Of a DNA stretch of 64,000 bases, positions 18,988 to 50,380 are shown piece by piece (position 1 is the first letter of the stretch; every line of letters begins with the position of its first letter). Both the position numbers and the translations under genes were made by a program. The notes beneath the pieces are model-generated. The model worked only from the letters and a program-made list of their open reading frames with translations. It made no database searches and was not told the DNA's origin. The stretch comes from an uncultured bacterium (lineage in GTDB: Bacteria > Krumholzibacteriota > Krumholzibacteriia > G020349025), in NCBI GenBank assembly GCA_964567755.1, contig CAZMNW010000020.1:110434-174433 (forward strand). The letters run 5' to 3'.

Positions 18988-19022
18988 AGCCAAGGGCGAT
19001 CTCTGCAAGCGCGATGAACTCA

Positions 19023-24427: not shown

Positions 24428-24485
24428 AGCCCCGTTGTGAAGGCGCCTGCGACGAGGCGAGCCGTAAACGGACCTTGAAACCAAT

Positions 24486-24565
24486 GTGGCCCCTCTCGAG
24501 GCCCGAATGCGTTCCCTGGTTTGGAGAGGTCTCGGGGGAGATGGTAGTCTCCCTCTGGAATCATC
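24486..24565 (+). promoter_or_regulatory. conserved 5-prime leader element with hairpin GGGGGAGA-tggtag-TCTCCCTC (24534-24555) preceding paralog 4
   Basis: Near-identical to 19023-19103; 8-bp stem with one G-U wobble. Confidence 0.4.
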
Positions 24566-27236
24566 ATGACTTGCTACTGCCGATGGGCGCGCCGCTCGCG
24601 AACCGCTGTCCTGGATAGGCAGCGGGCTTTTTGCACGGCAACTCTTCTCCTCTTCTTCTTCTCGTGGAACGGCATGACGGCTGGCGCCCTCGAGGGCGAC
24701 GAGCACTGGCGGGGCCGCTTCGTTTGGCCCGGGGCCGGGTTCAATAGCGGACCCTCGACGATGATCGTCTACCAGGGGAAGCTCATCGTCGGCGGCGGTT
24801 TCACGCTTGCGGGGGGGAACCGAAGTTGGTCGCATCGCGCAATGGGACGGCATGACCTGGAGCGGCCTTAGTTCGGGGATGACGGTCTACCCGGGAAGTG
24901 CCCTAGTCAACAAACGCGCTGTCTACCGTGACACGCTCTGCGCCTCCGGCGTCTTCGATCACGCAGGTGGAGTTCCTGCAGAGAACTTTGCTGCCTGGGA
25001 TGGAGTGCAATGGAGTCCGGGGAGCTTCGCATCGACTGCCGGGGTGCAACTGGTGACTCCTCGTCTAGTGGTTGGCGTGGAGAACAATCTCTACGTGTTG
25101 GGCGGTTTCAAGCAGGGAACCACGTCCCTCGCAGGCCTGGCGGAATGGAATGGCGTGAACTGGAGATTCCTGCCCACGAAAAATCCGTCGGCAGGGACGT
25201 TTTCCATTAGTGACCTCGCCGTGTATCAGGGCAAGCTCGTCGTCGGAGGGCAATTCACCATGATCGGCGGCGTTGCCGCGAGGAACATCGCCACCTGGGA
25301 CGGGATTGGTTGGAACGAGCTCGGAGGCGGCGTCGGGGACACCGGTTACGTCAGCAAGTTGCTGGTGTACGACGGTCGCCTCATCGTGGCTGGACGATTC
25401 ACGCTGGCTGATGCCGTGAACAACATCGCAGCATGGGACGGTGTGGCATGGCATCGGCTCGGCGCGGGAACGAACGACTCCATCGGCGAGCTCGTCGAAG
25501 TCGGCGGAAATCTCATCGCTTCCGGCAGCTTCACGCGGGCGGGCGGAGTCGAGGCCTCGCTGGCCCTGTGGGACGGTGCCGCGTGGAGCGCGGTCGCCGG
25601 CTGGCCGCTTGGGCAGGACGCTTACCGCATGATCACCTTCGGTGACGAACTCGTGGTGGTCGGGTCGTTTTTCCGTATCGGCGACCTGGAAGTAGCCAAC
25701 ATCGCAGCATGGGATGGGAACACGTGGCGTGTCCTGGATGGACGCAGCATGCGAGCAGGGCTGGGTCTCGATGCGGCGCCGACCAGTTTCGTTCCCTACG
25801 GCGAGGACCTTTTAGTCCGCGGGGACTTCGAGTTTGCAGGGAACATGGCCGCGAATGGCCTCGCGCGCTGGGATGGAGCCAAATGGAGCTCCTTCGGGCT
25901 CGATGCGGACCGAGTGAGCGAACCCGTGGTGGATGGCGACCGGGTCTTCGTGTGCGGGTCGTTCGTCGATCCTTCCAATGGCGCACGCTACAACCTCGCC
26001 ACATGGGACGGGGGCTCGTGGCGATACGCGAATGCACCCATAGCATCCCCTGGTAGACTGATCATTCACGAAGGGAAGCTGGTCGTATCAGGTTTCTCCG
26101 ATATCGAAGAGTGGGATGGAAGCTCCTGGCGTTCCCTAGGACCGGTGAGCGGCAACATTTCCAGTCTCCTCCAATACGACGGCAGGCTGATCGCCTCTGG
26201 CGATTTCACGACGATCGGCGGTGTCGAGGCGCAGAACATTGCGCAGTGGGATGGAACGGCCTGGACTCCGCTCGGGAGTGGACTGGCAAACGCCCGGAAT
26301 GTCTCAGATCTCGGGGTTCACGATGGGGAACTCGTCGCGGCCGTGCTTGGGGGATTCCCGCTTGGGTACGTGGCGGTCTGGGATGGTGTGAGCTGGAGCT
26401 TTCTTCCTCGTATGAACGATCGTATTCTGGCCCTGAAATCACACGAAGGTAGTCTTTTCGCCGGCGGTCTCTTCACCGAAGCGGGCGGCGTGGTGGCGTC
26501 GCGCATCGCACGCTGGGATGGCTCGAGCTGGAACCCGATGGGATCCGGCTGCGATTGGGCGGTCATGGGGTTCGGATCGTGGAAAGGCGTGCTCTATGTC
26601 GGCGGGAACTTCAATCTCGCCGGTGGACGCCCCGCGGACTGCTTGGCGCTTTGGGACGACACCCCGGTGCCGGTCGCGGTGTCGGAACTGCGGGCCGAAC
26701 GAGTCGATGCAGATGTGCTCGTAACTTGGCGTGCGGGCGGAGACCTGGGGGATCTCGTGGGGTTCCATGTCCTCCGCGAAGGCGATGATGGCGTACGGAA
26801 GCGCCTCACGTCGACACTTCTGCATGGAAGCACAGTCTACGGGCACCGCGATCTCAGCGTGCCTGCAGGATCGCTGCGCTATTGGCTGGCGGCAGTCGAC
26901 CGATCGGGCGACTCGACCTGGTACGGGCCGGTGAACGTGCAGGGGACGATCGGAACAACAGCGCTCCTCGGCATCCGGCCGAACCCATTCGTGTCGAGCA
27001 CGCGAATCGATTTCGAGTTGTCCACCCCGGGACCTGCGGCGCTCGATGTTTACGACGTACGTGGACGACTGGTGATCCGACTGATGGCACGCACGATCGG
27101 CGCCGGCCGCCACGAGGCGATGTGGGACGGACGCGGGAGCCCGACCCATGCGGCGGCCCATGGGATCTATTTTGTTCGCCTGGCAACTCCCAAGGGATTG
27201 CTATCCATCAAGCTCATCAAGTCGCCTTCGAAGTAG
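24566..27236 (+). pseudogene. beta-propeller-like repeat protein paralog 4, disrupted by +1 frameshift in a G7 homopolymer (24814-24820)
   Basis: Track ORF 24566..24871 (MTCYCRWARRSR...FTLAGGNRSWSH) and ORF 24807..27236 (...GGTEVGRIAQWDG...) are the same gene in two frames; the junction lies at gcGGGGGGGaacc, where paralogs 2 and 3 read gcgggaggcacc (one base fewer). Confidence 0.7.
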
Positions 27237-27246
27237 TTCCGGACCG

Positions 27247-27607
27247 CCGGACCTCCGTAGATTTACGGATGGCTCTTGCTCCTGTGTGGCTCTCCCTCGC
27301 CGTCGTGCCACCGACTTGGACTTCCGCCGACCCGTATTGCCACTCGATTGCGTTTCCCTTGAGTGAGAGGTCTTGCGTGAAGGTGGTACCCTCTTGCTGG
27401 AATCAGACAAGGTTTGGTACGGGCGGATGGTGCGCCTTCGGCGCACCCATGCTCGCGATGGAACATGCGCCGTTTTGGGCTCGGTCACGCTCTTCGCCTT
27501 TTCCCCTCTCCAGAAGCGGCATGCAGGCTGAGGCTGCCGAGGGCGACGAGTCTTGGTGGGGTGGCTTCGTTTGGCTGGGGCCCAGGGTAAACGCTCACGA
27601 CGCGTGA
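27247..27607 (+). pseudogene. remnant of a fifth beta-propeller paralog (leader plus first ~60 codons only)
   Basis: 27380-27600 is homologous to the leader and N-terminal coding region of paralogs 2 and 4 (ggtaccctcttgctggaatcag...; MQAEAAEGDESWWGGFVWLGP vs AGALEGDEHWRGRFVWPGAG); homology stops at about 27600 with an in-frame TGA. Confidence 0.5.
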
Positions 27608-27645
27608 CGAGTGGATGGTCCGGAAGCTCGCGAAAGGACGAGAGA

Positions 27646-30600
27646 GTGGTGAACCAACCAGATTCTCGCCAGCGCGCGCGCGCGTTCCTTCGCATGTGCG
27701 ATCGAAGCGGGCGCGTGTGGGCGTGCGTCTATCTGTTCTTGCACATGGGCTTGCTTCTCCCCGCCACGGCTCACGCCCAGCCACCGCTCTTGAGCGCGGA
27801 TCCTGTGTGGGTCTCGCCTTCCCACGCGACTCGCGGCCTCGCTCTCGGCGACGTGGACATGGATGGCGATTTGGATCTCGTGCTCGGCAACTTCCGCGAG
27901 GCAACGACGCTGCATCTCAACCAGGGCGGGCGTTTCGATCCTGCACCGGCGTGGTCGTCACCGGTTCAGCCGACGACGAGCGTGGCGCTCGGCGACGTGA
28001 ACGGAGATGGCGCCATCGATCTCGTGTGTGGCAATGTGAATCAAAGCTCACGATTGTACCTCAACGTGGGGGGCCGGTTCGGAGATACGCACAACTGGCT
28101 TTCCGAAGGCCATGCCACAGAGGACGTCGCGCTGCTGGACGTGGAGGGCGACGGTGATCTCGATCTCATCTGCGCCAACCAAGACCGAAGCGTGCTCTAC
28201 CTGAACGAAAATGACCAACTCGGCAATGTTCCGCACTGGAATTTCCTCACCAGTGCATCGGCAACAGCATGTGGCGACTTGGATGGAGATGGGGATCTCG
28301 ACGTGGTGTTCGGCACATCTCCGAAAGCATCGTTCCATCGCAATGAAGGCGAGATTTTCTCGAGCGCCATCAACTTCTCGCAAGACCAGTCGACTTCGGG
28401 CATCGCCTTGGGAGACGTGAATGGAGATGGCGATCTCGATGTCGTCCTCGGAGGCAGCAGCACGACGACGCTCTATCTGGGCCAGGGAAGTTCCTTCAAA
28501 GTTTTCCCGGATTGGATTCTCCAAGCCCCGAACACCACGGACATTGCGCTAGGAGACGTGGACGGAGATGGAGATCCAGATCTCGTCTGCGGCCATGCTG
28601 ATCAAAGCACGAAGTTTTACCTCAATGAATCCGGGACGTTCACCAACACTCCGTCGTGGACGTCGCAAGTGCACGCGACGCAGAACATTGTGTTGGGCGA
28701 CGTGGACGGCGACGGCTGGATCGATCTCGTGTGCGGCAACGAGGATGAAGGCACGGTGCTCTATACCAATACGGCTGGACGTTTCGACGCAACCCCTGTT
28801 TGGTCGTCCTCGGAGTTCCGCACGTTCGATGTGGTGCTCGAAGACGTGGATGGGGATCACGACTTGGACGTGTTCCTCGGCAACTCTGGCCAGAGCACCA
28901 TGCTCTATCTCAACGCCGGGGGGACGCTGAGCGCTTCGCCCATCGACGTGTCGCGAGCACACTTCACGCAGGGGATCGCCGTCGGCGATGTGGATGGCGA
29001 CGGTGACCCAGATCTAGTCTGCGGCAACGGGCTCTTCGGCAACACTCTCTATCTCAATGTCGGAGGTGTGTTCGGTCCCGACCCGGTGTGGACTTCGCGG
29101 CCGCATGGAACGCTCGACGTGGCACTTGGAGATGTCGATGGGGACGGTGACTCGGACCTCGTGTGCGGCAATCCATTCCAGCCAACTGTGCTGTATCGCA
29201 ACGAAGGCGGACGCTTCGGCAGTGAACCCGCTTGGATGTCGCAACTTCACGATACCCGCAGCGTCGCGCTGGGCGACGTGGATGTCGACGGAGATCTGGA
29301 TCTAGTCTGTGGCAACATCAATCAGCGCACGACGCTCTATCGCAACGAGAACGGAATTCTCGGGACTGTGCCATTTTGGTTTTCGCAGGCGCATGCGACT
29401 GCGGACGTCGCGCTGGGCGATATCGACGGCGATCGCAGACCCGATCTTGTCTGTGCCAACACCAACCAGGAAAGCGTCGTTTATCGTAACGAGGGGGCGG
29501 GTTTCGGCGACGCTCCCCATTGGCTGTCCAAGACTCAGGCGACAGCCGCGGTCACGCTGGGCGACGTGGACGCCGACGGCAGGCTCGATCTCCTTTTCGC
29601 CAATCACGCCGAGCCGGCGACGATTTACCTCAACGGGGAGTCCGGTCTCGCGGCCGCTCCCGCATGGTCGTCACCAGTGCAAACGGCGAGCAGCATCGCC
29701 GCAGGGGACCTGGATTTGGATGGTGATCTCGACTTCCTCTGTGGAGGCAACATGCAGAGCTCGAGGTTGTACACTGGAACCTCGAGCCGTCCTTTCCGAG
29801 GCAATCCTCAGACGCCCGTACATCACTTGCCCAATCAGGATGCCGCACTGCGCTACGCGCACGTCGAGGTGCAGGGCGCGAATTGGGCTGCAGTGCGCTT
29901 GTTGGCGGTCGACCTCGAGTCGGATCCAGTGTGGATCCTGGCGGAGTATCAGTTCCGTGGCGAGCCCGAATGGCATCCTGTGGATTCGGCTGACACTTCA
30001 GGGCTTTTCGGACCGTTCGACACCTCGCCTCTCGGTGCCGCGCACGTGCTGTCATGGAAGTTGGATCGCATCCCCGTCGATCCCCGCCCGGTCGTCCTGC
30101 GGTTGAAGGCGATCTCTCACCCGCGCCGCACGGGTGAGATTCGCCACATTGGCGCTTCTCTCGTGGATGTGGGTGTGGTCGACGTGCGGCGACCGGTCAT
30201 CGCCGCATCCGTTTCCACTCTGGAGTTTTCCACCGTTACCGTGGGCGACACGGTGACGGCAATGGTCACGATCTCCAATCGTGGCAACGAGCTGCTCACG
30301 TTGAATCAGGTCGTAACTGCCTCGCCGGAGCTACGCGTCGCGCAATCTACGCCTTTCGCCATCGACCCAGCGGGACACGTCGACCTGGAGGTATTCCTCG
30401 AGCCGCTCGCTCCACGCCTCGACTGGGGAGATCTCTCGATCGAGAGCAACGACCCGTCCACGCCACTGCTCACCATCGATATCGCGACGGATGTGCGCGA
30501 CTTGTCGTTCACCGCACGGCTGCTCACAGCGACACCGGAGGTCCCCGTGGGCCAAGCGCTCACGGCCGTGCTCACGCCCGCGGCTCTGGTCCGGATCGAA

Positions 30601-32481
30601 ACCGCCGCGGTGCACTATCGCGCCGCAGGCAGCAATCTTGGTTTTGCCAGTGCGCCGCTTCTGCCTCTGGCTGGCGATTTCATCGGCGCGATTCCGAACG
30701 CAGGAATCACCGAAGGGGGGGTGGAGTACTTCTTCGAGGTAGAAAACAGCAGCGTGGTCGCAACGGAACCACGTTCCGGTGGCTATTACACCCAAGCGGT
30801 TCGAGCTCCCGAGGCCATCGCGGCCGAACCCTTGCCGAATTCGGGGGCAGAGTTCCTCGTGGGGCGTGATGTGACCGTCCAAGTCGCGCTTCCCGAAGGG
30901 ACGGAGTTCGTTCGCGGCGCCGTTCACTTTCGGCGTGGGGGCGAAGGAGACTACGCCATCGACAGCTTGCGGAGCGCGAGCCCTTTCCCGTTGGCCACGA
31001 TCGGTCAAGGTTTCGTGACCGCGCGGGGGATCGAGTTCTGGGTCGATGTACAGACGCGAACGCGCACATTGACGCAGCCGCCAATCGATCCAATGGCCAA
31101 CCCGCAAGTGGTGCAGACGCTGGTGCGGGATTTGGAAGAGCCCACGGTGCACCCAGGTCGTCGCTTCCGGCTGATTTCGGTGCCGCTCGATTTCGGCGCG
31201 GCGACGAACCGGACGCTCGAGGCCCTGTTGTCCGGTGAAAGCGAGTTCGGTCCCTACGATCCGTTCCGGTGGCGTTTATTCCGCTATCTGCCGGAGTCGA
31301 ACACCAACGAGGAGCTGTCAGCCGGCAACGTCGCGTTCCAGCTCGGGCTCGCGCGCGCGTTCTGGCTGGTGAGCCGCGACGATCACAGGATCGACACATC
31401 TCCCGTGGATGCGCTGTCGACGCCGACGGGTGCGCCGTTCCCGATCGTGCTCGGGTCGGGTTGGAACCAGATCGGCAATCCGTTCGCGTTCCCGGTTTCG
31501 TGGGAGTCGGTGCAGGTTCCAGCCGGTGTCGGGTCGCTGACGGCATTCGATCCGGGTCTTGGAACGATTGGAGACTTCGTCGATGCGTCGGGGATCCTCC
31601 AACCATTCGAGGGCTACTTCGTCCACAACAGTTCGGCGGAGCAAGAGACGTTGTGGGTACCGCCTGTGGAGTCGCCGTCTATGGTGCCGGCGAAGTCGAT
31701 GCCGCGCACGATGTCCCTGGATTCGTGGTCTGTGCGTTTGCAGGCCAGGACGCGAGTGGGGTTCGACGGAGCCAACACCTTCGGTGTAAGTGCTGCAGCA
31801 ACGGATGGTGCGGATGCATTGGATCGGGTGAAGCCGCCGCAAGTGCCGGGTCCGTGGGTGCGAGCGAATTTCGTGCTACGGAACGCAAGCCAGGAGCTTT
31901 ATCGGTCGGACGTGCGCAGCGCTGCACACGAGGGCAACTTGTGGGAGCTGGAGGTGCGCAGCGAAGCCGAATCGGAGGCGGTGACGCTAGAGCTGGTCGC
32001 TACGTCTCGATTGCCGGCTGATCTCGGCATTCGGCTGTTGGACGAGGAGCAGGGGACGACGGTGGATCTTTTGCAGCCCGGTGGTGAGCTCGGCCGCTAC
32101 ACCATCGTGGGGCGCGGGCCCGTGCATGCATACCGGTTGAAGATTCTCGCGGGCACTGCGGAATACCTGGAGACGGCCGGCGGTGCGATCGTCGAGCTTC
32201 CGGCGCGTGTGGTTCTGGATCTCGGGCCGAATCCATTCAAGGAGGCAGCGCGGATCCGATTCGGCTTGCCGCGCGCCACGCAGGCGAGTCTCTCGATCTA
32301 CGACGTGCGCGGCCAACGAGTGGCCGAGTTGCGTCGGGGAGAGAAGCTCGCTCCCGGTTACTACGTGTCGGTGTGGCATGGGACGGACACGGCGGGCCGG
32401 GAGCTCGCGAGCGGTGTGTACTTCTGCCGCATCGAGGCCAGCGCCACCACGCTCACCAAGCGCATCGTGCTCTTGAGATGA
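27646..32481 (+). CDS. giant secreted FG-GAP/VCBS-repeat protein with FlgD-Ig-like C-terminal domain, paralog A
   Basis: Start uncertain (GTG 27646 or ATG 27694); signal peptide VWACVYLFLHMGLLLPATAHAQ; 13 or more FG-GAP-type repeats (GDVDGDGDLDLVxGN...LYxN); conserved middle region; C-terminus LDLGPNPFKEAARIRFGLPRATQASLSIYDVRGQRVAEL...VYFCRIEASATTLTKRIVLLR. Confidence 0.8.
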   Translation: MVNQPDSRQRARAFLRMCDRSGRVWACVYLFLHMGLLLPATAHAQPPLLSADPVWVSPSHATRGLALGDVDMDGDLDLVLGNFREATTLHLNQGGRFDPAPAWSSPVQPTTSVALGDVNGDGAIDLVCGNVNQSSRLYLNVGGRFGDTHNWLSEGHATEDVALLDVEGDGDLDLICANQDRSVLYLNENDQLGNVPHWNFLTSASATACGDLDGDGDLDVVFGTSPKASFHRNEGEIFSSAINFSQDQSTSGIALGDVNGDGDLDVVLGGSSTTTLYLGQGSSFKVFPDWILQAPNTTDIALGDVDGDGDPDLVCGHADQSTKFYLNESGTFTNTPSWTSQVHATQNIVLGDVDGDGWIDLVCGNEDEGTVLYTNTAGRFDATPVWSSSEFRTFDVVLEDVDGDHDLDVFLGNSGQSTMLYLNAGGTLSASPIDVSRAHFTQGIAVGDVDGDGDPDLVCGNGLFGNTLYLNVGGVFGPDPVWTSRPHGTLDVALGDVDGDGDSDLVCGNPFQPTVLYRNEGGRFGSEPAWMSQLHDTRSVALGDVDVDGDLDLVCGNINQRTTLYRNENGILGTVPFWFSQAHATADVALGDIDGDRRPDLVCANTNQESVVYRNEGAGFGDAPHWLSKTQATAAVTLGDVDADGRLDLLFANHAEPATIYLNGESGLAAAPAWSSPVQTASSIAAGDLDLDGDLDFLCGGNMQSSRLYTGTSSRPFRGNPQTPVHHLPNQDAALRYAHVEVQGANWAAVRLLAVDLESDPVWILAEYQFRGEPEWHPVDSADTSGLFGPFDTSPLGAAHVLSWKLDRIPVDPRPVVLRLKAISHPRRTGEIRHIGASLVDVGVVDVRRPVIAASVSTLEFSTVTVGDTVTAMVTISNRGNELLTLNQVVTASPELRVAQSTPFAIDPAGHVDLEVFLEPLAPRLDWGDLSIESNDPSTPLLTIDIATDVRDLSFTARLLTATPEVPVGQALTAVLTPAALVRIETAAVHYRAAGSNLGFASAPLLPLAGDFIGAIPNAGITEGGVEYFFEVENSSVVATEPRSGGYYTQAVRAPEAIAAEPLPNSGAEFLVGRDVTVQVALPEGTEFVRGAVHFRRGGEGDYAIDSLRSASPFPLATIGQGFVTARGIEFWVDVQTRTRTLTQPPIDPMANPQVVQTLVRDLEEPTVHPGRRFRLISVPLDFGAATNRTLEALLSGESEFGPYDPFRWRLFRYLPESNTNEELSAGNVAFQLGLARAFWLVSRDDHRIDTSPVDALSTPTGAPFPIVLGSGWNQIGNPFAFPVSWESVQVPAGVGSLTAFDPGLGTIGDFVDASGILQPFEGYFVHNSSAEQETLWVPPVESPSMVPAKSMPRTMSLDSWSVRLQARTRVGFDGANTFGVSAAATDGADALDRVKPPQVPGPWVRANFVLRNASQELYRSDVRSAAHEGNLWELEVRSEAESEAVTLELVATSRLPADLGIRLLDEEQGTTVDLLQPGGELGRYTIVGRGPVHAYRLKILAGTAEYLETAGGAIVELPARVVLDLGPNPFKEAARIRFGLPRATQASLSIYDVRGQRVAELRRGEKLAPGYYVSVWHGTDTAGRELASGVYFCRIEASATTLTKRIVLLR

Positions 32482-32527
32482 TTCTTTTTTCGGCGAGCCC
32501 AGTCCGAAGGCCCGGACGAGGACGAAA

Positions 32528-35500
32528 ATGAAACGTTGGCAGAGCCTGTTTCCACGCCACACTTTTCAAAGCCTCTTCGTAGCGTTCTTCGTCATGGTCA
32601 CGCTGAGCCGACCGATCGGGGCGGAGGAACCCACTTTTGGTCAGACGCCCGCGTGGGCTGGCACTGTGGAGTTCACTCGCAGCGTTGCGTTCGGTGACAT
32701 GGATGGCGATGGCGACCTCGACCTCGTCCGCGGCAACGCTGACCGGCCGATGACCCTGTACCTCAACATCGGCGGCACGTTCGCTGAATCTTGGACACCG
32801 ATCGGAAACGCGGGCCACGTCGCAAGTGTCGCCTTGGGCGATATGGACGGCGATGGTGACCTCGACATCGTCGTTGGTGGGGACGGGGGGACAAGACTTT
32901 TCCATAATGCAGGACTCCAATTCGCCCGTGTATGGGCGCAAGAAGGCGAACCGACACACACCGTGGCCCTGGGCGACGTGGATAGTGATGGTGCGCTGGA
33001 CCTCGTTCGTGGCGGCACCAGCACCACCACTCTTCACCTCAACGCCGGCGGCGTCTTCACCGACACGCCCGCCTGGACCGGACCGGCCGGGATTACTTAC
33101 AGCGTTGCCCTTGGCGACGTGAACAATGACGGCGACCTCGATCTCGTCGCAGGCGGAAACCCCTCCATGCTCTACCTCAATCTCGGCGGCACCTTCGTCA
33201 ACCAGACCTTGTGGGGATCTTATGCAGAGAGTGTTGCTCTTGGTGACGTGGACGGCGATGACGATCTCGACCTGGTTTACGGCTCCGACCCGCAATCAGC
33301 GCGACTGCATCTCAACGTTGGGGGGACCTTCAACAGGGATCCAGCGTGGACGGGGCCGGCCGGCACCTCGGCGGGCAGCGTGGCACTTGCTGATGTGGAC
33401 GGCGATGGCGACCTCGACCTGGTCCGTGGGGGTGGAATGGGCTCGCAAGAGCAAAGAACAGCGCTCCATCTCAACTCCGGCGGGACATTCGTCTCCGCGC
33501 ACGCTTGGAGCGTGGCGCAGGGCTCATTGGACATCGCCCTGGGAGACGTGGATGGTGATGGGGATCTCGACCTTGCACAGACGAACGGAGGGACGGCTGC
33601 CCTTTACCTCAACGACAGCCCCAGCATTGCCTCCACACCTGCATGGAGGGGGCCGGTCGATGAAACCCAAAGCGTGGCTCTGGGCGACGTGAACAGCGAC
33701 GGCGCCCTCGATCTTGTATGTGGAAACCGGCTTCCTGGAGGTCCAGGCCCGATGCCAGCCACGCTCTACCTCAACACCGGTGGCACGTTTGCGGCCGTAC
33801 CGGCGTGGAGTGGACCTCCCGAGGAAACCCTGAGCGTGGTCCTGGGGGATGTGGACGGCGATGGCGACCTCGATCTCGTTCGAGGCAACAACAATGCAGG
33901 CACCACGCTGTACCTGAACATCGGAAGTACTTTCGCCCCCACACCGGCCTGGACGGGGCCCAGCGCGCAAACCTGGAGCGTGAGGTTGGGAGACGTGAAC
34001 GGTGACGGCGATCTCGACCTCGTCCGCGGGAACTATGATGGGGGAGTGACTTTGAATCTCAATACCGGCGGCACTTTCGCCGATACGATGAATTGGAAGA
34101 GTCCGCTCTTTGAGAGCACTCAAGGTATCGCGCTGGGCGACATCGACAGCGATCAGGACCTGGATCTCGTTGCTGGAAATTACAACCACCCATCCAGTCT
34201 GTATCTCAACTTCGGTGGGAAGTTCCGTCTGGACACCCGTTGGAGCGGACGCCACGAGTGGACCAAGAGTGTAGGGTTGGGGGACGTGGACGGCGACGGC
34301 GACCTCGACCTCGTCCGCGGAAACTACAACGTGGGCTCCACGCTTTATCTCAACGCCGCCGGCACGTTTGCGAGCACACCGGCTTGGACCGGGCCCGAGG
34401 AGGGTACCAGAAGTGTGGACCTGGGATGTAGACGGGGACGGTGACCTCGACCTCGTACAAAGCGTCACCGTGGGAGTATCGCTGTTCCTGAACACTGGGG
34501 GAACGTTTGCCGCTGAGCCCACCTGGCAAGGATTGGAGGGCAACGGCATCAGCGTTGCGCTCGGCGATGTGAACGGTGATGGAGCGCTCGACGTCGTCCG
34601 AGGAGGTCGAGATGCAATTCTTTTCTTGAACAGGAGTCCGTGGATCAAGGACGGCGCCGCGGTCACGCACCTGCCCAACAATGACGCCCATCTGCGCTGG
34701 GTCCGCGCTACCCGAGTCGACTCCACCCGCTACCAAATCTCCTTTTTCGCGGTGGATGCCGAATCCGATCCGCTCTGGCTCGTCGGCGAGTACCAACGCG
34801 AGGGAACCCCGATCTGGTACGCCATGGACATCGAGGGCTCCTCACCCCGCGCTGGCCCCTTCGAATCGTCCCCTGCTGGAATCAGGCAGGAAGTGTCATG
34901 GGACGTGACCCAGCTTCCGTTCCATCGCGGCAACATCGTGATCCGGTTGCGAGTGGTTTCCTTGCCGCGGCGTGTCGGCGTCGTCCAGTTTGTTCCCTCC
35001 TATGTCGCAAACGTGGGACTGATCACGCCCGTCAGGCCGGCGATCGCGGTCGCACCGGAGACGCTCGTTTACCCCACTTTGACCGTCGGGGATTCGGCAT
35101 TGGCGACGCTCCAAATCTCGAATCCTGGGAACCGCGATCTAGTCATCGATCAGATCGAGTCCCCACACGCGGAAGTTCACGTCGACGCCGAGCTGCCTCT
35201 CGTCGTGGCACCAGGCCAGACACTGTCCGTCGACGTCCTCCTCGCGCCCACATCGCTGATCGTGGGCCTCGATCCCGTTCGAATACATACCAACGACCCA
35301 ACGCGCCCGATGCTAGACATCCCTGTCGTCACGGATGTCCGGCCGCTTCAAGTCACGACCGATCTGGTCACGGCACTACCGGAGCTTCCACTTGGCGAGG
35401 CAACGAGTGTGATCGTGACTCCGGCGCCACAAGTACACGTGGAGAAGGGATTTCTGCACTACCGCGGTCGCGCGCCGGGCGTCGCATTCTCCGACAGCGT

Positions 35501-37340
35501 CGCCCTCGTGCCACGCGGAACTGGTTTCATCGCGCTCGTACCCGGCGAGGACGTGAGCGAAGCCGGGCTCGAGTACTACGTCCGCGTGGAGAACAGCAGC
35601 GTCTTCGCTTTCGATCCGCCGGGAGCCCCGAATTCGACATTCTTCTACCCGGTAGCAGCGCCGGCCGGGATCTCGAGCGCGGCCCAGGCCGATCCGTCGG
35701 GCAACTTCCCGATGGGTCGACCCACACCCATCGAGGTGTCCATGCCACAGGGTTCGATCTTCCAATCCGGAATCGTCTACTACCGGCCCGGCGGCGCGGC
35801 GACCTACGACAGCCTCGATCTTGCGCTCGCAGAGGTGACGCCTGGCGTTTTCTCGCCGGCGGGCACCATTCCGGGTGCGGCGGTTGGACCACGTGGCCTG
35901 GAGTATCGGGTGCGGGTGCTGACGTTGACGCGCCCATTGACGGATCCTCCTTGTTCAGACTGCAGCAACGCACGAGTCGTGCGGACGAGCGTGAGCAACC
36001 TAGAAGAAGGCCGATCGTACCCCGGCCGGCGCTTCCGCTTGGTCTCGGTGCCTGTCGATCTGGGCTCGAGCCGGACGTTGGACGCGCTGCTCACCGACGA
36101 AGGTGAGTTCGGTGCGTACGATCCGGTGCGTTGGCGGCTATTCCGCTACGTGGGTGAGACGCACACGAACGCGGAGTTCGCTTCGGGGTCGGAAGTGTTC
36201 CACGTCGAGCCGGGGCGGGCATTCTGGCTCATCAATCGGGATGGTCATCGGATCGATACATCGCCTGTGGATGCGCTGTCGACACCAACAGGTGCGCCGT
36301 TCCAAATCGTGCTCACGCCGGGCTGGAACCAGTTCGGCAATCCGTTCGCGTTCTCGGTTTCGTGGGAGTCGGTGCAGGTTTCAGCCGGTGTCGGCTCGCT
36401 CACGGCATTCGATCCGGCTCAAGGGACGATCGGAGACTTTGCCGAGGCGTCGGGGATTCTCCAACCCTTCGAGGGCTACTTCGTCCACAACAGTTCGGCG
36501 GAGCAAGAGACGTTGTGGGTGCCGCCTGTGGAATCGCCGTCCGCGGTGCCGGCGAAGTCGATGTCCCGCACGATGTCCCTGAATTCGTGGTTTGTGCGTT
36601 TGCAAGCCAGGACGCGTGAGGGATTCGACGGGGCAAACGCCTTTGGCGTGGATCCCGCTGCCGCTGACGGACGAGATCCTCTCGATCGGGATGAGCCGCC
36701 CTCGCCGCCGGGTCCGTGGGTGCGGATCGCTTTTGTGCATGGAGACGAGGAGAACGGGTATCGCCGAGACATGCGCACGGCAGGGAAGGATGGCAACATC
36801 TGGGAGCTGGAGGTGCGAAGCGAGAAGGAGTCGGAGCCGGTGACGTTGGCGCTGCTGTCGGACTCGGAGTTGCCTGCAGAGCTCGCAGTCCGTCTCGTGG
36901 ATCTGGAGCAGGGCGCGTCGCTGGATCTGCTCCGTCCCGGCGGAGAGCCGAGTCGGTACGAGATCGTGTCCTATGGACCCGACCACCCTTACCGTTTGGC
37001 GCTGCTCGCCGGCACAGAGGACTACCTGGAGAGGGAGGACGGATCGCTCGTCGAGCTGCCGACACGACTCGTGCTGGAGCACGGGTTGAATCCATTCCAC
37101 GAGGCGACGACGATTCGCTTCGGATTGCCGCGCGCGAGTGCGGTGACGCTGGCCATCTACAACGTGCGCGGTGAGCGGGTGGCGGTGTTGCGGGAGGGCG
37201 ACTTGGCGCCGGCTGGATATCACGTGTCGCTGTGGAGGGGAATGGATGGAACGGGAAGGCCCGTGGCGAGCGGCGTGTACTTCTGCCGATTGGAAGTCGG
37301 GGTGACGCAATTGACTCGTCGAATGGTTCTTCTGAGGTAG
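32528..37340 (+). pseudogene. giant FG-GAP/VCBS-repeat protein paralog B, disrupted by a frameshift near 34420-34430
   Basis: Track ORFs 32528..34444 and 34368..37340 are one gene in two frames; the junction ...SVDLGCRRGR* vs ...WTWDVDGDGDLDLV implies a 2-nt deletion within a GDVDGDGDLD repeat codon block. Confidence 0.7.
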
Positions 37341-37345
37341 ACGCC

Positions 37346-37867
37346 ATGGGTGCGCATCGAATCGCAAATGCACGCGATCGGGATGAGCAGCGGAGGCTCT
37401 ATCGGGGAATCCATGCCAAAGCGCGGCTGAACCCCGTTCGCTCGAGCGGCGGTGCGATCTTGGTCTTTGCGTTGCTGACCGTGCCGGCAAGCTTACTTGT
37501 CTTGCCGCGGCAAGTGTGGAGCCAAGTGGACTTTTTCCAACCGCCTTCCTTGATCTCGAGTCAGGACCGCAATACGCAGGGCGTCGCTCTGGGGGACGTC
37601 GATCGCGACGGCGACCTCGACCTCGTGCTCGGGAACTACAGGCAAAGCGCGACGCTCCATCTCAACTCCGCAGGGACTCTCGGTTCGATGCCGGCTTGGT
37701 CCTCCGACCTTCCGCATCGGACGACGAGCGTCGTTCTAGGAGACACTGACGGCGACGGCGATCTCGACCTCGTTTGTGAGAACTTCGCGCAGAGAACGAC
37801 GCTGTATTTGAACGAAAACGGCAGCTTCGGCGTCGAACCGGCTTGGTTTGCAGGCCGGTGCGCTTGA
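37346..37867 (+). pseudogene. internal-deletion remnant of an FG-GAP paralog (N-terminal ~165 codons joined to the extreme 3-prime end)
   Basis: N-terminal signal-like sequence and two or three FG-GAP repeats; its last ~30 nt plus the downstream spacer (gcgcttgaaatgaatcggttttttt...cgaaggcc...gaaaATG) match the 3-prime end and junction of paralog A (cgtgctcttgagatgattctttttt...cgaaggcc...gaaaATG). Confidence 0.45.
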
Positions 37868-37922
37868 AATGAATCGGTTTTTTTGTGGTGAAGCCAGTTC
37901 GAAGGCCAGGTGCGAGGCTGAA

Positions 37923-40900
37923 ATGAAGACGAGTTGTCGAATACCCCAGCACAGGTTCGCCCTCAGGGCTCCGCTCCTTGCATTGGCGATCGTCGGTTTC
38001 CACTCGTCCGCTTGGAGTCAAACGCCCCTGTCATCTGCGCCTGTGTGGTCGTCGCAGGTGCATTGGACGCGGGGTATCGCCGTCGGGGACGTGGACGGCG
38101 ACGGCGCTCTCGATCTGCTACTCGGCAACCAAAGCGAGAGCAGCACACTGTACCGCAACGTGGCGGGCATTCTCGGCGCCGACCCCGTCTGGTCCTCTCA
38201 GGTCGACAAGACGAGCAACGTGGCATTCGGTGACGTGGACGGCGATGGCGACCTCGACCTGGTGTGCGCGGAGTCGGAGGATTTCACCGGAAACAAGACG
38301 ACACTGTACCTCAACGAAAATGGAGTGCTGGCCGACACACCGGTTTGGTCGTCACGGCTCGACCAGACGCACGACGTCGCGCTCGGGGATGTGGATGGAG
38401 ATGGCGATCTCGACCTCGTCTGCGGCAACGACAGCCTGAGCACCTTGTACCGCAACGACGGCGGCAGGTTCGGGGACGATCCCGTCTGGTTTTCACAGCC
38501 CCACGAAACGTACGGCGTCGTCCTCGGAGACGTGAACGGCGACGGAGATCTCGACCTCGTCTGCGGAAACGCGGTTCAGGGCACGACGCTCTATCTCAAC
38601 GCAGAAGGTGTCTTCGGCGCGGCTCCCGTTTGGGTGTCGCAGGTGCACGGGACGTACAGCGTCGACCTTGGGGATGTGGACGGCGATGGCGATCTCGATC
38701 TGGTGGTCGGGAATGGCTTCAACCTCGTCGTACAGGGACGGACCAAAACCTTGCTCTATCGCAACGACAACGGGAGGTTCGGCGATGTGCCGGTGTGGAG
38801 TTCTGCCTCCGAAGCGTTCACCACCGCTGTCGTTCTTGGCGACGTGGACGGCGATGGCGACCTCGATCTGGTCCTCGGCAACCGCGAGGCGAGGACGGAG
38901 CTCTATCTCAACGATGGCGGCGATTTTGGCAGTGCTCCCGCTTGGTACTCACAGGATCACGAGACGCAAGATGTGGTCCTGGCGGACGTGAACGGTGACG
39001 GTGGGCTCGATCTCGTGTGCGGCAACCGGCTCCAGAGCGCGACGCTGTATCTCAACACCGGTACGAGTTTCGGTGCCACGCCCGACTGGTCGTCTCCAGT
39101 GCCCTCGACGCTGGTGACGTTGGCTGCGGCCCTCTGTGACATCGAGGGGGACTCGGACCTCGACCTGGTGCTCGGTCTGAGCCGAGGCCTCATGCTCCAT
39201 CACAACACGAACGGCAACTTCGGAGAAGCGACTGGGAGCTTCGGGTCGGGCGCGACGCGGGCCATCGCTCTCGGAGACGTGGACCAGGACGGCGACACCG
39301 ACATGGTGGTTGGCATCAAGACGGGGACCACTCTGGCGGTGCTCCTGTACGCCAACCATTCTGGTTCGTTCACCTACGTGTGGTCGTCGCTGGTCGATAC
39401 GTCGCAGTTCTACGACCCGGACGTCGCGCTCGGGGACGTGAACGCCGACGGGAGGCTCGACTTGGTGGTCGGGACTCCGAACCAGGGCGCCCTGCTCCAC
39501 CTGAACGAGGGTGGTCGTTTCAGTGACGAGCCGATCTGGTCCTCGCCAGCGCCGTACAAGTTCGCTCGCCACGTTGCATTGGGCGATGTGGATGGCGATG
39601 GATGGCTCGATCTGGTTTGTGTGCTCGGCTCAGGTCTCGGTGTCGCGGTCTTTCGCAATGATGGCATTGCGTTCGAAAACACGCCCATGTGGTCTTGGAG
39701 TGTAAGCACCGCGGTCGGGCACGTGGTGCTGGGCGACGTGAACGGTGACGGCTGGATCGATCTAGTTTGTGGCACCATTCTCGATAGTGTGACGCTTTTC
39801 ATCAACTCCGGCGGCACGTTCGCGGACAGCCCGGTTTGGGCATCCCCGACCGCCCATGAGTGGCCTCGTGTCGCCTTGGTGGACGTGAATGGGGATGGCT
39901 GGCTCGATCTCGTCGTGAGCACCAGGGAAAACAAGAACACTCTGCTGTATCTCAACGAAGGTGGCGGGTTCGGTGATGCTCCGGCTTGGCGCTCGCAATC
40001 GGCCGACACCCCTGGCATCGCTGTGGGCGACGTAGATCGAGATGGAGATCCAGACCTCGTTTGCGCCAACTACGATCAGCACACGACACTCTATCGCGGC
40101 AGGTCCAGCTACCGGTTTCTGGGCGACACCCGCGCGCCGGCGAACCAGCTGCCGAACAACGACGCCTTCGTATCGGGGACATTCATCACCGAGACGGGCG
40201 AGAATCGTTACGGGATCGGCTTCGTCGCCGCCGACATCGAAGCGGATCCGGTGTGGATCGTGGCGGATTATCAATTCCGTGGCGACCCGAGGTGGGCTCC
40301 GGTCCAGGTTCTGGGAGCGACTGGCAGGCTGGGACCGTTCGCGACCACGCCAACCGGGAACACGCATCGTTTGACCTGGGACACCTCTCGTCTTCCCGTC
40401 GACTCCCGGCCCGTCGTGCTGCGGCTGCGTGCGCTCTCGAACCCAGGCAAAGTCGGCGTCGTGCAGCGCGTCCCCAGCTACCGCTACGAGCTCGGGCCGA
40501 TCGACGTTCGGCGGCCGATGATTTCGCTATCGCGGCCCGCTCTCGATTTCCCGAGCGTCACCGTGGGGGACACTGTCGAAGCCTCGACTCGGATCGAGAA
40601 TCGTGGCAACGAAATGTTGACGATCGAACGTCTCGCGGTTCCCGCGTTCACTCGGGTTGTGGGGGAGTTGCAGACAGACATTGCGCCCGGAGACGGCGTG
40701 GATCTGCTGCTTTTCTTCGAGCCGCTCTCCGCGCTCGCCGCCGCCGAAACTCTCTGGATCGACAGCAACGATCCAGCGACGCCTCGGCTCGCCGTGCGGT
40801 TGCAGAGGGACGTGCGCGAGATCGAATTCACCGCACGTCTGCTCGCGCCCGTGCCCGAGGTTCCCGTCGGACAGGCGTTGACCGCGGTGCTGACCCCGGC

Positions 40901-42899
40901 AGCGGATGTTCGCATCGAGAAGGCCGATATTCGCTACCGGGAATCGGGGAGCGACGCAGCCTTCGTGACCCGACCCCTGCAGAAGGTCGGCGGCGACTTC
41001 ATTGGCACGATTCCGAACGAGGGTGTGACCGAGGGGGGTGTCGAGTACTACTTCTCGGTCGAAAACAGTAACGTCATCCGAACTCATCCACCTGACGGTA
41101 GCTGGCTCACCCAAGCCGTGCACGCCCCGGACGGGGTCACGTCACGCGCGTTGCAGAACTCGAGCAACGGGTTCCTCGCCGGACGCAGTGTCAGCGTCGA
41201 AGTGCGCCTGCCGGAAGGCGCGCGATTCGTCCAGGGGATGGTGCATTACCGCCGAGGCGGCGAATCCACTTTCCGGTCTGCGATGCTGCAGGGGGAACCA
41301 TCTGCTCTCGCCGCCACCATCCCGGACAGCGCTGTGACCGAGCGTGGGCTCGAGTATTGGGTCGAGGCGCAGACGCTGACGAGCATTCTCACTGACCCGG
41401 CGTCCGATCCCGCGCTCGCCCCCCACACCCTGCGTCTCACCGTGCAACGGATGGAAGAACCACTTGCGCACGCCGGTGCGGTTTACCGCATGGTCTCGAT
41501 CCCATTGGACTTCGGCGAAGGTTTCTCCGGCACGCTCGAAGCGCTCCTGGCCGAGCTGCCGGTTTTCGGTTCCTACGATCCGTTGCGCTGGCGATCGTTC
41601 CGTTGGCTTCCCGAGCGCCAATGCACTCAGGATGCGTACGCCTGCTACGTCGAGCTCGGCGACGACGAAGCGTCCATGGTGCGCCCGGGTCGCGCCTTCT
41701 GGCTGGTGACGAAGGAGTCGCATCGAGTCCAATTCCAAGTGCCGGGGCAGTCCGCCTCGACAAAGGAGCGATTCGCGGTGCAGCTTCAGCCAGGATGGAA
41801 CCAAATCGGGAACCCATTCGCTTTCCCCGTCGCATGGCAAACGATCGCAATCGATTCGTTGTCCGATGGCAGTGCCGCCAGAGTCGAGCCTCCCTGGCTA
41901 TGGATCGTGTCGGCTGACGGCCGGGGCGCGTACGAGAATGCGGCAGTGTTGGCGCCATTCGAGGGCTACTTCGTGGTCAACAACAGCCCCGAACCGGCGG
42001 CGTTGCGGATTCCAGCACTCGAGGCGGCGATGCTCGTAAGCGGAATCGCGGGCAAGGCAACTTCGGGGGCCACAGGCAGGGTTGCATCGGACTTCGACAT
42101 CGTCATCCGAGTTGACGCTGCCGGTTTTTCGGATGCGGCACACGCCGGACTCGTCGAAGAAGCCGCGCGAGGCTGGGACGCGCGCGACCGTTCGGATCCC
42201 CCTGGAGCTCCTGGCGGGGCGGTGTCCATCTACTTCCCGCACGAGGATTGGGACACCGTGGCGCATGCATTCTGCTGGGATACGCGTCCCCTCGCGTATT
42301 CGGGCGGAGTCGCCCCCACGCCGGTCCTGCTCGGAGGCGGTGAGGCATGGAGACTCGACGTCGCGCGCGCCGGGTTCGCGCCCGGAACCGAGCTCGACGC
42401 CGTACTCACAGTCGAGGGCATTGCGAACCTGCCACCGTCTCTGGATGCGGTGTTGCTGGACCATGTGCTGGGAAGCGAAATCGATCTGCGCCGCGAATCG
42501 CAGTGGCGCTTCGTGCTGGGGGACCGCGGGGTGGTCGGCGAAGCGGCCGCACGTTTCGAGCTCGTGATCGGGGATGCGGAGTTCCTTGGTTTGCATCGGG
42601 AGGCTTTGCTCGCATTGCCGCTCCGAACGCGCCTGCTGCCGAACCAGCCCAATCCATTCCACAGCGGCACCACGATTCGCTACGAGATCGCGACCGGGGC
42701 CGAGGCAGCGCTGCGCATCTACGACGTGCGCGGGCGTCTGGTGCGGACGCTCGCCCAGGGGCCGGCACGGCCGGGACGCTACGAGCTGATGTGGGATGGC
42801 ACCGACGCGCGTGCGAACGTCCTGCCGGGTGGGGTGTACTTCACGCGCCTCGAGACCCCGGGTGCAGTGCAAACGCGAAAGATCCTGTTCGTGCGATAA
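37923..42899 (+). CDS. giant secreted FG-GAP/VCBS-repeat protein with FlgD-Ig-like C-terminal domain, paralog D
   Basis: MKTSCRIPQHRFALRAPLLALAIVGFHSSAWSQ signal; more than 15 FG-GAP repeats; C-terminus LLPNQPNPFHSGTTIRYEIATGAEAALRIYDVRGRLVRTLAQGPARPGRYELMWDGTDARANVLPGGVYFTRLETP...KILFVR. Confidence 0.8.
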   Translation: MKTSCRIPQHRFALRAPLLALAIVGFHSSAWSQTPLSSAPVWSSQVHWTRGIAVGDVDGDGALDLLLGNQSESSTLYRNVAGILGADPVWSSQVDKTSNVAFGDVDGDGDLDLVCAESEDFTGNKTTLYLNENGVLADTPVWSSRLDQTHDVALGDVDGDGDLDLVCGNDSLSTLYRNDGGRFGDDPVWFSQPHETYGVVLGDVNGDGDLDLVCGNAVQGTTLYLNAEGVFGAAPVWVSQVHGTYSVDLGDVDGDGDLDLVVGNGFNLVVQGRTKTLLYRNDNGRFGDVPVWSSASEAFTTAVVLGDVDGDGDLDLVLGNREARTELYLNDGGDFGSAPAWYSQDHETQDVVLADVNGDGGLDLVCGNRLQSATLYLNTGTSFGATPDWSSPVPSTLVTLAAALCDIEGDSDLDLVLGLSRGLMLHHNTNGNFGEATGSFGSGATRAIALGDVDQDGDTDMVVGIKTGTTLAVLLYANHSGSFTYVWSSLVDTSQFYDPDVALGDVNADGRLDLVVGTPNQGALLHLNEGGRFSDEPIWSSPAPYKFARHVALGDVDGDGWLDLVCVLGSGLGVAVFRNDGIAFENTPMWSWSVSTAVGHVVLGDVNGDGWIDLVCGTILDSVTLFINSGGTFADSPVWASPTAHEWPRVALVDVNGDGWLDLVVSTRENKNTLLYLNEGGGFGDAPAWRSQSADTPGIAVGDVDRDGDPDLVCANYDQHTTLYRGRSSYRFLGDTRAPANQLPNNDAFVSGTFITETGENRYGIGFVAADIEADPVWIVADYQFRGDPRWAPVQVLGATGRLGPFATTPTGNTHRLTWDTSRLPVDSRPVVLRLRALSNPGKVGVVQRVPSYRYELGPIDVRRPMISLSRPALDFPSVTVGDTVEASTRIENRGNEMLTIERLAVPAFTRVVGELQTDIAPGDGVDLLLFFEPLSALAAAETLWIDSNDPATPRLAVRLQRDVREIEFTARLLAPVPEVPVGQALTAVLTPAADVRIEKADIRYRESGSDAAFVTRPLQKVGGDFIGTIPNEGVTEGGVEYYFSVENSNVIRTHPPDGSWLTQAVHAPDGVTSRALQNSSNGFLAGRSVSVEVRLPEGARFVQGMVHYRRGGESTFRSAMLQGEPSALAATIPDSAVTERGLEYWVEAQTLTSILTDPASDPALAPHTLRLTVQRMEEPLAHAGAVYRMVSIPLDFGEGFSGTLEALLAELPVFGSYDPLRWRSFRWLPERQCTQDAYACYVELGDDEASMVRPGRAFWLVTKESHRVQFQVPGQSASTKERFAVQLQPGWNQIGNPFAFPVAWQTIAIDSLSDGSAARVEPPWLWIVSADGRGAYENAAVLAPFEGYFVVNNSPEPAALRIPALEAAMLVSGIAGKATSGATGRVASDFDIVIRVDAAGFSDAAHAGLVEEAARGWDARDRSDPPGAPGGAVSIYFPHEDWDTVAHAFCWDTRPLAYSGGVAPTPVLLGGGEAWRLDVARAGFAPGTELDAVLTVEGIANLPPSLDAVLLDHVLGSEIDLRRESQWRFVLGDRGVVGEAAARFELVIGDAEFLGLHREALLALPLRTRLLPNQPNPFHSGTTIRYEIATGAEAALRIYDVRGRLVRTLAQGPARPGRYELMWDGTDARANVLPGGVYFTRLETPGAVQTRKILFVR

Positions 42900-42911
42900 T
42901 GCCATGAAGGA

Positions 42912-43790
42912 GTGAGCATGAAACCCAAGTTCGTCTTGCATCGGGCGCGTGCCGATTCGCCCTTTGTCTCATGGAGGGCGTGGGCGCTCGCGATCTGGTC
43001 TTTGACGATCTGCGCGCGGGGTCTGCACGCGCAGAGCCAAGAAGACTCACTGTCTGCTTCAGGGGAAGAACAACCGACGGCAGCGTCTTCTCTCGATGTC
43101 GATTCGTCCCTGGAGCAAGCGCGTGTGTTCATGACCTCCCTCGAATACGAGAAGGCAATCGCGGTTCTCGAGCCCGTGCTCGAAGAGACCCGTTTCAACC
43201 CCGATCGGTTGCGGGAGACGTATCTCCTGCTCATCGAGGCGCACGTCTATGGCGGCAACCGCAGTGCGATCGGCAGCAAGGAACAGCAGCTCTGGTACGA
43301 CGAGGCGCGCGATCTCATCCGCGAGTGCCTGGGCGTGCGCGAGCTGCGTCACACGCTGCCGGACCCGCCGGAACGTTACCCGAGCGAAATGCTCGGGCTC
43401 TTCGAGTCGGTACGGCGCGAAACCTTCGGGGCTTTCGAGATCACCCAGCTTGAGCCACGAGATGCCGAGGTGGTCTTCGACGGCGAGACACTCGTTCCCG
43501 GTGACGACGGCGTTTGGCGCGTGGCGAACGTCCCAGTGGGTGTCCGCATGCTGGTGATCCGGAAGTCGGGTTACGAGGATTTCACCGAGGATGTCGAGAT
43601 CGCGCCCGCGACGCTGGTCTCGCGCCCGTATGAGTTGCGTAAGAGAAAGGGTTTCGGGTGGTACGCGACGCGCGTCGCGGCTCCTGTCATGGTCGCCGTC
43701 GGTGTCGTGGTGGGACTGACCGCGGGTGGGTCGGAAACCCCTGCCGCGGAGGAACCCCTGCCCGTCCCGCCGTTGCCGCCCGGGAAGTAG
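42912..43790 (+). CDS. secreted PEGA-domain protein with C-terminal TM helix
   Basis: Signal-like SWRAWALAIWSLTICARGLHAQ; PEGA-like AEVVFDGETLVPGDDGVWRVANVPVGVRMLVIRKSGYEDF; C-terminal hydrophobic VAAPVMVAVGVVVGLTAGG. Confidence 0.6.
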   Translation: MSMKPKFVLHRARADSPFVSWRAWALAIWSLTICARGLHAQSQEDSLSASGEEQPTAASSLDVDSSLEQARVFMTSLEYEKAIAVLEPVLEETRFNPDRLRETYLLLIEAHVYGGNRSAIGSKEQQLWYDEARDLIRECLGVRELRHTLPDPPERYPSEMLGLFESVRRETFGAFEITQLEPRDAEVVFDGETLVPGDDGVWRVANVPVGVRMLVIRKSGYEDFTEDVEIAPATLVSRPYELRKRKGFGWYATRVAAPVMVAVGVVVGLTAGGSETPAAEEPLPVPPLPPGK

Positions 43791-43863
43791 GCATCGCTCG
43801 GCATCGCGAGTCGGTGGCGATCGGGCTGCGTGAGGGTTGCAGTGCGATGGGGCAACGTCCGGA

Positions 43864-45807: not shown

Positions 45808-45809
45808 GT

Positions 45810-48020: not shown

Positions 48021-48364
48021 GATCCTTCTCGCGCCGGGGGAGTCGTCCGCAGAAGGTGCCGTCGTTGCCGTCGCAATGGTCCCAATACCTTATAACGTAG
48101 CACAGGACTGAAAGGGGTCCCATGCCGTGTCCAGCCTTGAGAATTGCAGGATCGCAACTCCCGTTTCGCCGCTGATGCTGAATGAGACGCCATCGATGGG
48201 GGAGCGGACGCCGGACACCAGGCACTTCCATGGCCCCTCCACGCACATTCCTACGTTCTCCATGTAGCCGATCGAGCGGTGGCCATGACCACAGGGGCGC
48301 AAGCCCTAGCGACGGTGTGGGTTGCAGGAAAAACGGTTGTCGACCGATCGTTGGAGGGCGGGCG

Positions 48365-50245: not shown

Positions 50246-50332
50246 AGGTCGGCCGGCGCGAGAACGTCCCGATCGCTTCAAGATCACGCCGCCGCGAGTG
50301 CTTGTTTCTCGTCTGAACGCCCACCCAGGGGT

Positions 50333-50380
50333 GGCCGAAGGATGGCCGCCGGCGAAGTCCGGGATCTCGAAACTGCGATC
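50333..50380. repeat. 48-bp imperfect copy (43/48 identical) of an internal segment of the NTPase-PEGA gene (47643-47690)
   Basis: ggccgaaggatGgccgcCggcgaagtccgggatctcGaAactgcgaTc vs ggccgaaggatTgccgcGggcgaagtccgggatctcCaGactgcgaCc; the copy lies in the convergent intergenic region 50246-50456. Confidence 0.6.

Follow-up and report, generated by a model that had tools for sequence, protein, structure and literature searches.

We analysed a 64,000-nucleotide stretch of DNA from an uncultured bacterium (contig CAZMNW010000020.1; "the window" below means this whole stretch) and found four paralogous genes in tandem on its plus strand, between positions 27646 and 42899: A, which is intact, B, which is frameshifted, C, of which a remnant is left, and D, which is again intact. 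The array probably consists of old paralogs for surface-anchored binding proteins, exported by a type IX secretion system (T9SS) in a soil or sediment bacterium of the Fibrobacteres-Chlorobi-Bacteroidetes (FCB) superphylum, most closely related to Candidatus Eisenbacteria, and shaped by birth-and-death evolution. The architecture of the proteins, their paralogy, the lesions and a gene-conversion tract are observed directly. An earlier reading of the letters alone (the sequence-only reading) had described three giant tandem paralogs; A and D are indeed large intact reading frames, but B is split by its frameshift and C is a fourth copy. The genes and spacers are these:

27646-32481, plus strand: paralog A, intact; probable start GTG 27646, with AGGA 7 nt upstream
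32482-32527, plus strand: A-B spacer, 46 nt, homologous to the spacer preceding D
32528-37340, plus strand: paralog B, in two frames (32528-34444 and 34368-37340); 1,604 residues after 2 nt are restored
37346-37867, plus strand: remnant of paralog C, 173 codons; signal peptide (judged by eye) and two FG-GAP repeats
37868-37922, plus strand: C-D spacer, 55 nt, homologous to the A-B spacer
37923-42899, plus strand: paralog D, intact, 1,658 residues from ATG 37923

The corresponding plus-strand open reading frames (ORFs) are very long (27553-32481, 32528-34444 plus 34368-37340, and 37848-42899). The order of parts is the same in each full copy: a signal peptide, 14 FG-GAP repeats, four immunoglobulin (Ig)-like domains, a module that we call X, and a T9SS type-A C-terminal domain (CTD). 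In A, B and D they occupy the following positions:

27694-27777, plus strand: A, putative Sec signal peptide, MCDRSGRVWACVYLFLHMGLLLPATAHA/QPP, judged by eye
27838-29787, plus strand: A, FG-GAP region, 14 repeats, each with a DxDxDG Ca-binding loop
29788-31134, plus strand: A, Ig-like domains, four beta-sandwiches, the third and fourth being repeated "GVEYYF" domains
31135-32220, plus strand: A, module X, ~360 residues (A residues 1195-1556), all-beta
32221-32478, plus strand: A, CTD, T9SS type-A sorting domain (FlgD_ig / Por_Secre_tail)
from 34635, plus strand: B, middle domains
36003-37079, plus strand: B, module X
from 37080, plus strand: B, CTD
38076-40103, plus strand: D, FG-GAP region
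40104-41453, plus strand: D, middle domains
41454-42641, plus strand: D, module X
42642-42896, plus strand: D, CTD

FlgD_ig and Por_Secre_tail both match the final ~82 residues, at the extreme C-terminus. Against TIGR04183, which has a cutoff of 23 bits, A scored 26.2 and D 26.1. The sequence-only reading had called this domain FlgD-like; the FlgD_ig match stands, but the TIGR04183 and Por_Secre_tail matches identify the domain as a T9SS-type CTD. Kinship with the flagellar hook-cap protein FlgD itself was rejected, as only the Ig-like fold is shared (NF005176 gave 17-23 bits against a cutoff of 230), and there are no flagellar genes near the array. The NPF...IYD/N..G motifs are conserved in the CTD, and its structure resembles solved T9SS CTDs. 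The CTDs that TIGR04183 describes are of type A: PorV delivers cargo of this type to the PorU/PorZ attachment complex, the cargo becomes linked to anionic lipopolysaccharide (A-LPS), and T9SS is known across the FCB superphylum (PMC11205867). Ten or more further genes in the window encode this CTD. In the literature we found nothing linking FG-GAP with T9SS.

Module X, directly upstream of the CTD, had no Pfam match even at E<=5, no NCBIfam match and no sequence relative in the PDB except designed Ig proteins. An exhaustive HMMER search with X, run against 1.84 billion cluster representatives (clusters at 50% identity), returned 9,450 proteins at E<=1e-3, of which 2,163 reached E<=1e-30. Rarity of the family was considered and rejected, word-indexed searches having given 5, 16 and 1 matches where the exhaustive search gave 9,450. 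For low-complexity, repeat-rich queries such as these, word-indexed search returned 1-16 matches against thousands by HMMER, and apparent rarity is unreliable. X lay immediately upstream of the CTD in 158 of the 158 proteins that we fetched, all of which had 81-103 residues (median 86) between the end of X and the C-terminus. The heads above it varied: 36 sampled proteins carried FG-GAP, Kelch, BNR/sortilin, PQQ, Reg_prop, LRR or ASH arrays. The constant place of X next to the CTD, under varied heads and across FCB phyla where T9SS is known, argues for T9SS-exported, surface-anchored proteins. X itself may deserve curation as a new domain family. More speculatively, and with rather little weight, it could be a dedicated T9SS-cargo unit of environmental FCB phyla, for example an anchoring or shuttling adaptor or a lectin, and the giant FG-GAP propellers could, with the kinase and PEGA neighbours described below, feed signalling.

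The FG-GAP/VCBS beta-propeller assignment of the sequence-only reading was borne out by Pfam scores far above their cutoffs. FG-GAP_3 (PF13517; cutoff 26.9 bits) gave 330 bits in A, 341 in D and 282+39 in the two parts of B, and FG-GAP (PF01839; cutoff 22.1) gave 157, 139 and 188 bits in A, B and D. Where 13 or more repeats had been proposed, a regular-expression count found exactly 14 DxDxDG loops each in A, reconstructed B and D, with a period of ~48 residues; both repeats of remnant C carry the Ca-binding loop DxDxDGxxD. Fourteen repeats would fit two 7-bladed propellers. Among solved proteins, CRTAC1 (9etn) comes nearest to the repeat region in sequence, in a weak match (E 2e-7) covering ~90 residues. 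The repeat regions of A and D are 64% identical in amino acids, and their four-fold degenerate sites, at 28% identity, are saturated; we therefore ascribe the high protein identity to purifying selection and not to recent exchange.

Below the repeats, the middle region had been thought possibly novel. It is modelled as four ordinary Ig-like beta-sandwiches at a predicted local distance difference test (pLDDT) score of 93, and the part that lacks curation is instead X. In the model, the second Ig-like domain of A looks like an ASH/PapD-like (choice-of-anchor D) domain. The motifs LSFTARLL...VPVGQALTAVLTPAA...GVTEGGVEYYF, which the sequence-only reading had taken to be common to all three genes, occur in A and D, but B is more diverged there.

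We also asked what structure comparison says of X. The matches from fold searches were all generic, to arrays of beta-sandwich and jelly-roll domains, and a Foldseek comparison of the X+CTD model with the PDB returned only low-TM beta-sandwich-array matches. These searches bear on the idea that the proteins are enzymes, such as polysaccharide lyases or oxidoreductases, with a catalytic site in the FG-GAP propeller or in X. Some FG-GAP/VCBS propellers do occur within enzymes, and Foldseek weakly matched the N-terminal jelly-roll and Ig region of glycoside hydrolase family 2 (GH2) enzymes. Those GH2 matches, however, had a TM of ~0.14 and involved only the non-catalytic jelly-roll and Ig beta-sandwich domains, and across the proteins we found no catalytic domain (no catalytic family at E<=5 in X or at E<=0.01 elsewhere). 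We regard an enzymatic role as very improbable.

The absence of any catalytic domain from these searches, together with the ten or more other window genes that bear the same CTD, favours the reading of the array as exported, anchored binding proteins. On this model, each protein would pass the inner membrane via Sec, and the type IX secretion system would recognise its CTD. A PorU-type sortase would then cut off the CTD and join the protein to anionic LPS, as in the pathway of type-A cargo (PMC11205867). The propellers would project from the outer membrane and bind polysaccharide or protein, the Ca-dependent double propeller acting as a ligand-binding head on a stalk of six beta-sandwich domains, the four Ig-like domains among them. 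The array would evolve by birth and death, through the frameshift in B, the deletion in C and occasional conversion between A and B. The surface or secreted location suggested by the sequence-only reading is likely. The proteins might instead be structural or matrix components (an S-layer-like coat or a biofilm scaffold) that assemble with themselves and bind no foreign ligand, which would fit their large size, their all-beta, multi-Ig make-up and their Ca-binding repeats, as well as the clustering of several paralogs and many other CTD proteins in the window. There is, however, no sign of very high expression or of lattice-forming domains, and an X-CTD tail found under many unrelated heads fits a generic display module better. 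We consider such a structural role unlikely.

The relatives of X place these proteins among FCB phyla. In a scan of GTDB species genomes, the closest X modules came from metagenome-assembled genomes of Candidatus Eisenbacteria (43-49% identity) and the next from Krumholzibacteriota, Latescibacterota, KSB1, Ignavibacteria, Calditrichota, Rhodothermales and Cytophagia. Of the 168 best X matches, 42 were 1,600-1,799 residues long, which is the length of the present architecture and the most frequent size class. Forty-one fetched proteins of ~1,545-1,725 residues align with the middle region of A at 28-44% identity, at least one of them with Kelch repeats instead of an FG-GAP head, and dozens of metagenomic cluster representatives have the complete architecture. 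Within the array, the paralogs are 34-44% identical in amino acids and their synonymous sites are saturated; B is 50% identical to the metagenomic homologs P0024 and P0028, yet 34% identical to D. Because A, B and D are about as distant from each other as from foreign homologs, we take the duplications to be old. Other metagenomic loci, as far as their available DNA reaches, have a single copy of the giant gene, so the four-copy array is a feature of the present lineage among those sampled. The sequence-only reading saw genes undergoing duplication; the copies are indeed paralogous, but they are old, and the dynamics still visible are decay and one tract of conversion:

31391-31750, plus strand: gene-conversion tract, A side, ~90% DNA identity to B 36253-36612
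36253-36612, plus strand: gene-conversion tract, B side, partner of A 31391-31750

This 360-nt tract contains exact runs of up to 53 nt between flanks that are 60-70% identical. Four-fold degenerate sites are 74-87% identical within it and about 30-40% identical elsewhere. Since identity in the tract is far above that of the flanks, four-fold sites included, we interpret it as a relatively recent, non-reciprocal exchange between A and B within X.

The lesions affect B and C. In B, the lesion lies within the repeats:

34421-34428, plus strand: B frameshift site, CTGGG/ATG, in the Ca loop of FG-GAP repeat 13

The frame shifts at about 34425, within CTGGG/ATGTAGACGGGGAC; two added bases give ...SVDLGDVDGDGDLDLV... 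and the full-length product, with no further stop. Most simply, the frameshift is a 2-nt loss from the G run. Programmed frameshifting or phase variation was rejected, as the site has no slippery motif and retains only a 3-G run. Its exact pattern had no match when JGI metagenomes were scanned. Remnant C was found within the 580-nt gap between B and D and is nearest to the N-terminus of A (54% identity). At its 3' junction the last ~15 nt of a paralog coding sequence (CDS) are retained, followed by the spacer. Because an N-terminal remnant joins the very end of a paralog CDS in this way, ~4.4 kb of the original gene C was evidently deleted. Copy 4 of a second family upstream (described below) has a +1 frameshift as well (24805-24820), in a G7 run at 24811 that reads GCGGGGGGGAACC where copy 3 reads GCGGGAGGCACC; the window has just three 7-base G/C runs, of which this is one.

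Several observations weigh against our interpretation. Some concern export and function. The CTD of B falls below the TIGR04183 cutoff (16.2 against 23 bits), no gene for T9SS machinery (SprA/Sov, PorV, PorU, PorZ, GldK/L/M/N) was found in the 64-kb window, and the literature yielded nothing linking Eisenbacteria with T9SS. The signal peptides proposed by the sequence-only reading agree with hydrophobic N-termini and AxA-like cleavage sites in A, B, C and D, which were judged by eye only. The pairing of propellers is proposed from the repeat count, and export, anchoring and binding are suggested by knowledge of the families. The lack of machinery genes in the window, the narrow margin of A and D over the TIGR04183 cutoff, the shortfall of B and the silence of the literature would all suit a FlgD_ig-type domain that is not a T9SS signal here, the proteins then taking another export or anchoring route or being released in soluble form. 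Yet the CTD is strictly C-terminal with conserved NPF...IYD/N..G motifs, its structure is like those of solved T9SS CTDs, and the family is spread over FCB phyla, all of which makes this alternative quite doubtful beside export by T9SS.

The remaining observations concern the decay of the array. The 990 codons downstream of the B frameshift are open and conserved, and the frameshift may be a sequencing error. With the G7 site at 24811 it makes two frameshifts in G runs, which raises the prospect of homopolymer sequencing error as against real decay. Given the open, conserved codons, the G-run site and the second G7 frameshift, we see two readings of the lesion in B: a mutation or polymorphism of very recent date, or a homopolymer error. 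One could go further and suppose that the array or its lesions arose as artefacts of assembly or sequencing, since both regional frameshifts (at 24811 and 34425) fall in G runs and B is wholly open past its own. The DNA of the paralogs, however, is only 65-73% identical, so that copies cannot collapse; we rejected repeat collapse, which the sequence-only reading had raised as a danger, on this ground. An independent contig from Logan (SRR9952630) is 100% identical to 31629-33421 and ends short of the B frameshift; being identical across the A-B junction, it confirms that junction independently. A public NCBI record includes D, on a contig of 218 kb, and the junction of C lies outside repeated sequence. 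We think an artefact possible, although unlikely, and continue to read the array as genuine tandem paralogs.

The homology of the spacers before B and D, which the sequence-only reading had noted, was confirmed. The A-B and C-D spacers are identical in 51 of 69 aligned columns, and the homology reaches into the final codons of the preceding CDS. They have in common a T-run, CGAAGGCC and a GAGG-type ribosome-binding site (GAGGA in the A-B spacer). The ~35 nt preceding GTG 27646 weakly resemble both spacers, which supports this GTG as the start of A; the alternative start is ATG 27694, and the longest ORF runs from TTG 27553 (1,642 codons). From ATG 37923, D is identical to database protein P0022 (1,658 residues, on the 218-kb NCBI contig). 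A contig index had no record of an exact match to D or to the first ORF of B. A scan for promoters and terminators found no sigma-70-type promoter or intrinsic terminator above shuffled expectation, no Rfam family matched in 26500-44000, and Tandem Repeats Finder detected no array, because the repeats are too diverged in DNA.

Downstream of D (42912-48020) lie genes for a 292-residue PEGA-like membrane protein with a C-terminal transmembrane segment, a Ser/Thr kinase-nSTAND2 protein (647 residues) and an ATPase_2/AAA-PEGA protein (736 residues). The kinase-nSTAND2 and ATPase-PEGA pair adjoins giant FG-GAP genes on two unrelated contigs (L083 3-9805 and the P0035 contig). The PEGA-like protein recurs on L083 (38% identity), and a similar-sized unannotated gene is present on the P0035 contig.

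Immediately upstream of A is a second tandem array (16276-27607, plus strand) of four paralogs of ~880-960 residues (16276-18987, 18879-21770, 21767-24427 and ~24560-27236) that have beta-propeller repeats of the DUF5122/Rax2 type and share the T9SS-type CTD. A fifth copy of this family, a short N-terminal remnant (...AEGDESWWGGFVWLGPRVN*), ends at 27607, just before gene A. Further CTD proteins include a 1,162-residue protein (50457-53945, minus strand) with Calx-beta, CBM96/DNRLRE and two cadherin-like/Big_9 repeats and a T9SS type-A CTD (TIGR04183 34 bits); the antisense ORF that overlaps it (49019-51103) is probably a high-GC artefact. A 213-residue protein (11910-12551, plus strand) seems to comprise hardly more than a leader and a near-cutoff T9SS CTD (TIGR04183 22.9 against 23 bits). 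Its gene adjoins two on the minus strand, one for an extracytoplasmic function (ECF) sigma factor (11125-11694) and one for a Ser/Thr kinase-TPR protein (9284-11128). Elsewhere in the window are an M4 thermolysin-like metalloprotease (48182-50245, plus strand) with an FTP propeptide motif and a HEYTHG active-site motif, and a multihaem cytochrome cluster (55205-63384) that suggests extracellular electron transfer. The cluster encodes a 472-residue NapC/NirT-like protein, a 1,383-residue multi-CXXCH and cytochrome b561-like fusion and, on the minus strand, a 593-residue MtrC/MtrF-like protein.

These results add little to general principles, as propeller-headed T9SS cargo is already familiar, and so are arrays of tandem paralogs. 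The locus does provide a clean annotated example of a widespread, unstudied family of 1,600-residue surface proteins in Eisenbacteria-like soil and sediment bacteria, and it illustrates how, in uncultured bacteria, arrays of surface proteins evolve by birth and death and by gene conversion. The by-product of most interest is module X, which is very common, uncurated, and merits a family model and a structure.

How do these proteins compare with known systems? The metagenomic homologs, for example P0024, P0031 and P0047 (1,640-1,642 residues) and P0028, have the same full domain order at 35-50% identity; none has a studied function, and they are single-copy in the available DNA, against four tandem copies here. 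Bacterial and animal FG-GAP (VCBS) proteins of the CRTAC1/ASPIC-UnbV type share the repeats, but CRTAC1 has a single propeller and neither the X module nor the CTD. The sequence-only reading had called the proteins integrin-like. As in the integrin alpha ectodomain, FG-GAP blades with DxDxDG Ca loops stand over an Ig-like stalk (thigh and calf in integrin). In contrast to integrin alpha, however, there are 14 blades instead of 7 and no transmembrane helix, cytoplasmic tail or beta-subunit partner, a CTD taking the C-terminal place; the resemblance is one of architecture, an analogy and not membership. The remaining comparison is with T9SS type-A cargo (TIGR04183/PF18962/PF13860), such as the gingipains of P. 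gingivalis and mirolase of T. forsythia. The passenger here is a double FG-GAP propeller with six beta-sandwich domains and not a protease, the host lies outside the Bacteroidota, and secretion and A-LPS anchoring are predicted. But the known cargo likewise has a signal peptide, one or more Ig-like domains and a C-terminal beta-sandwich of ~80 residues, and it is this class that A and D join by their TIGR04183 scores and that the fold of the CTD matches in solved examples.

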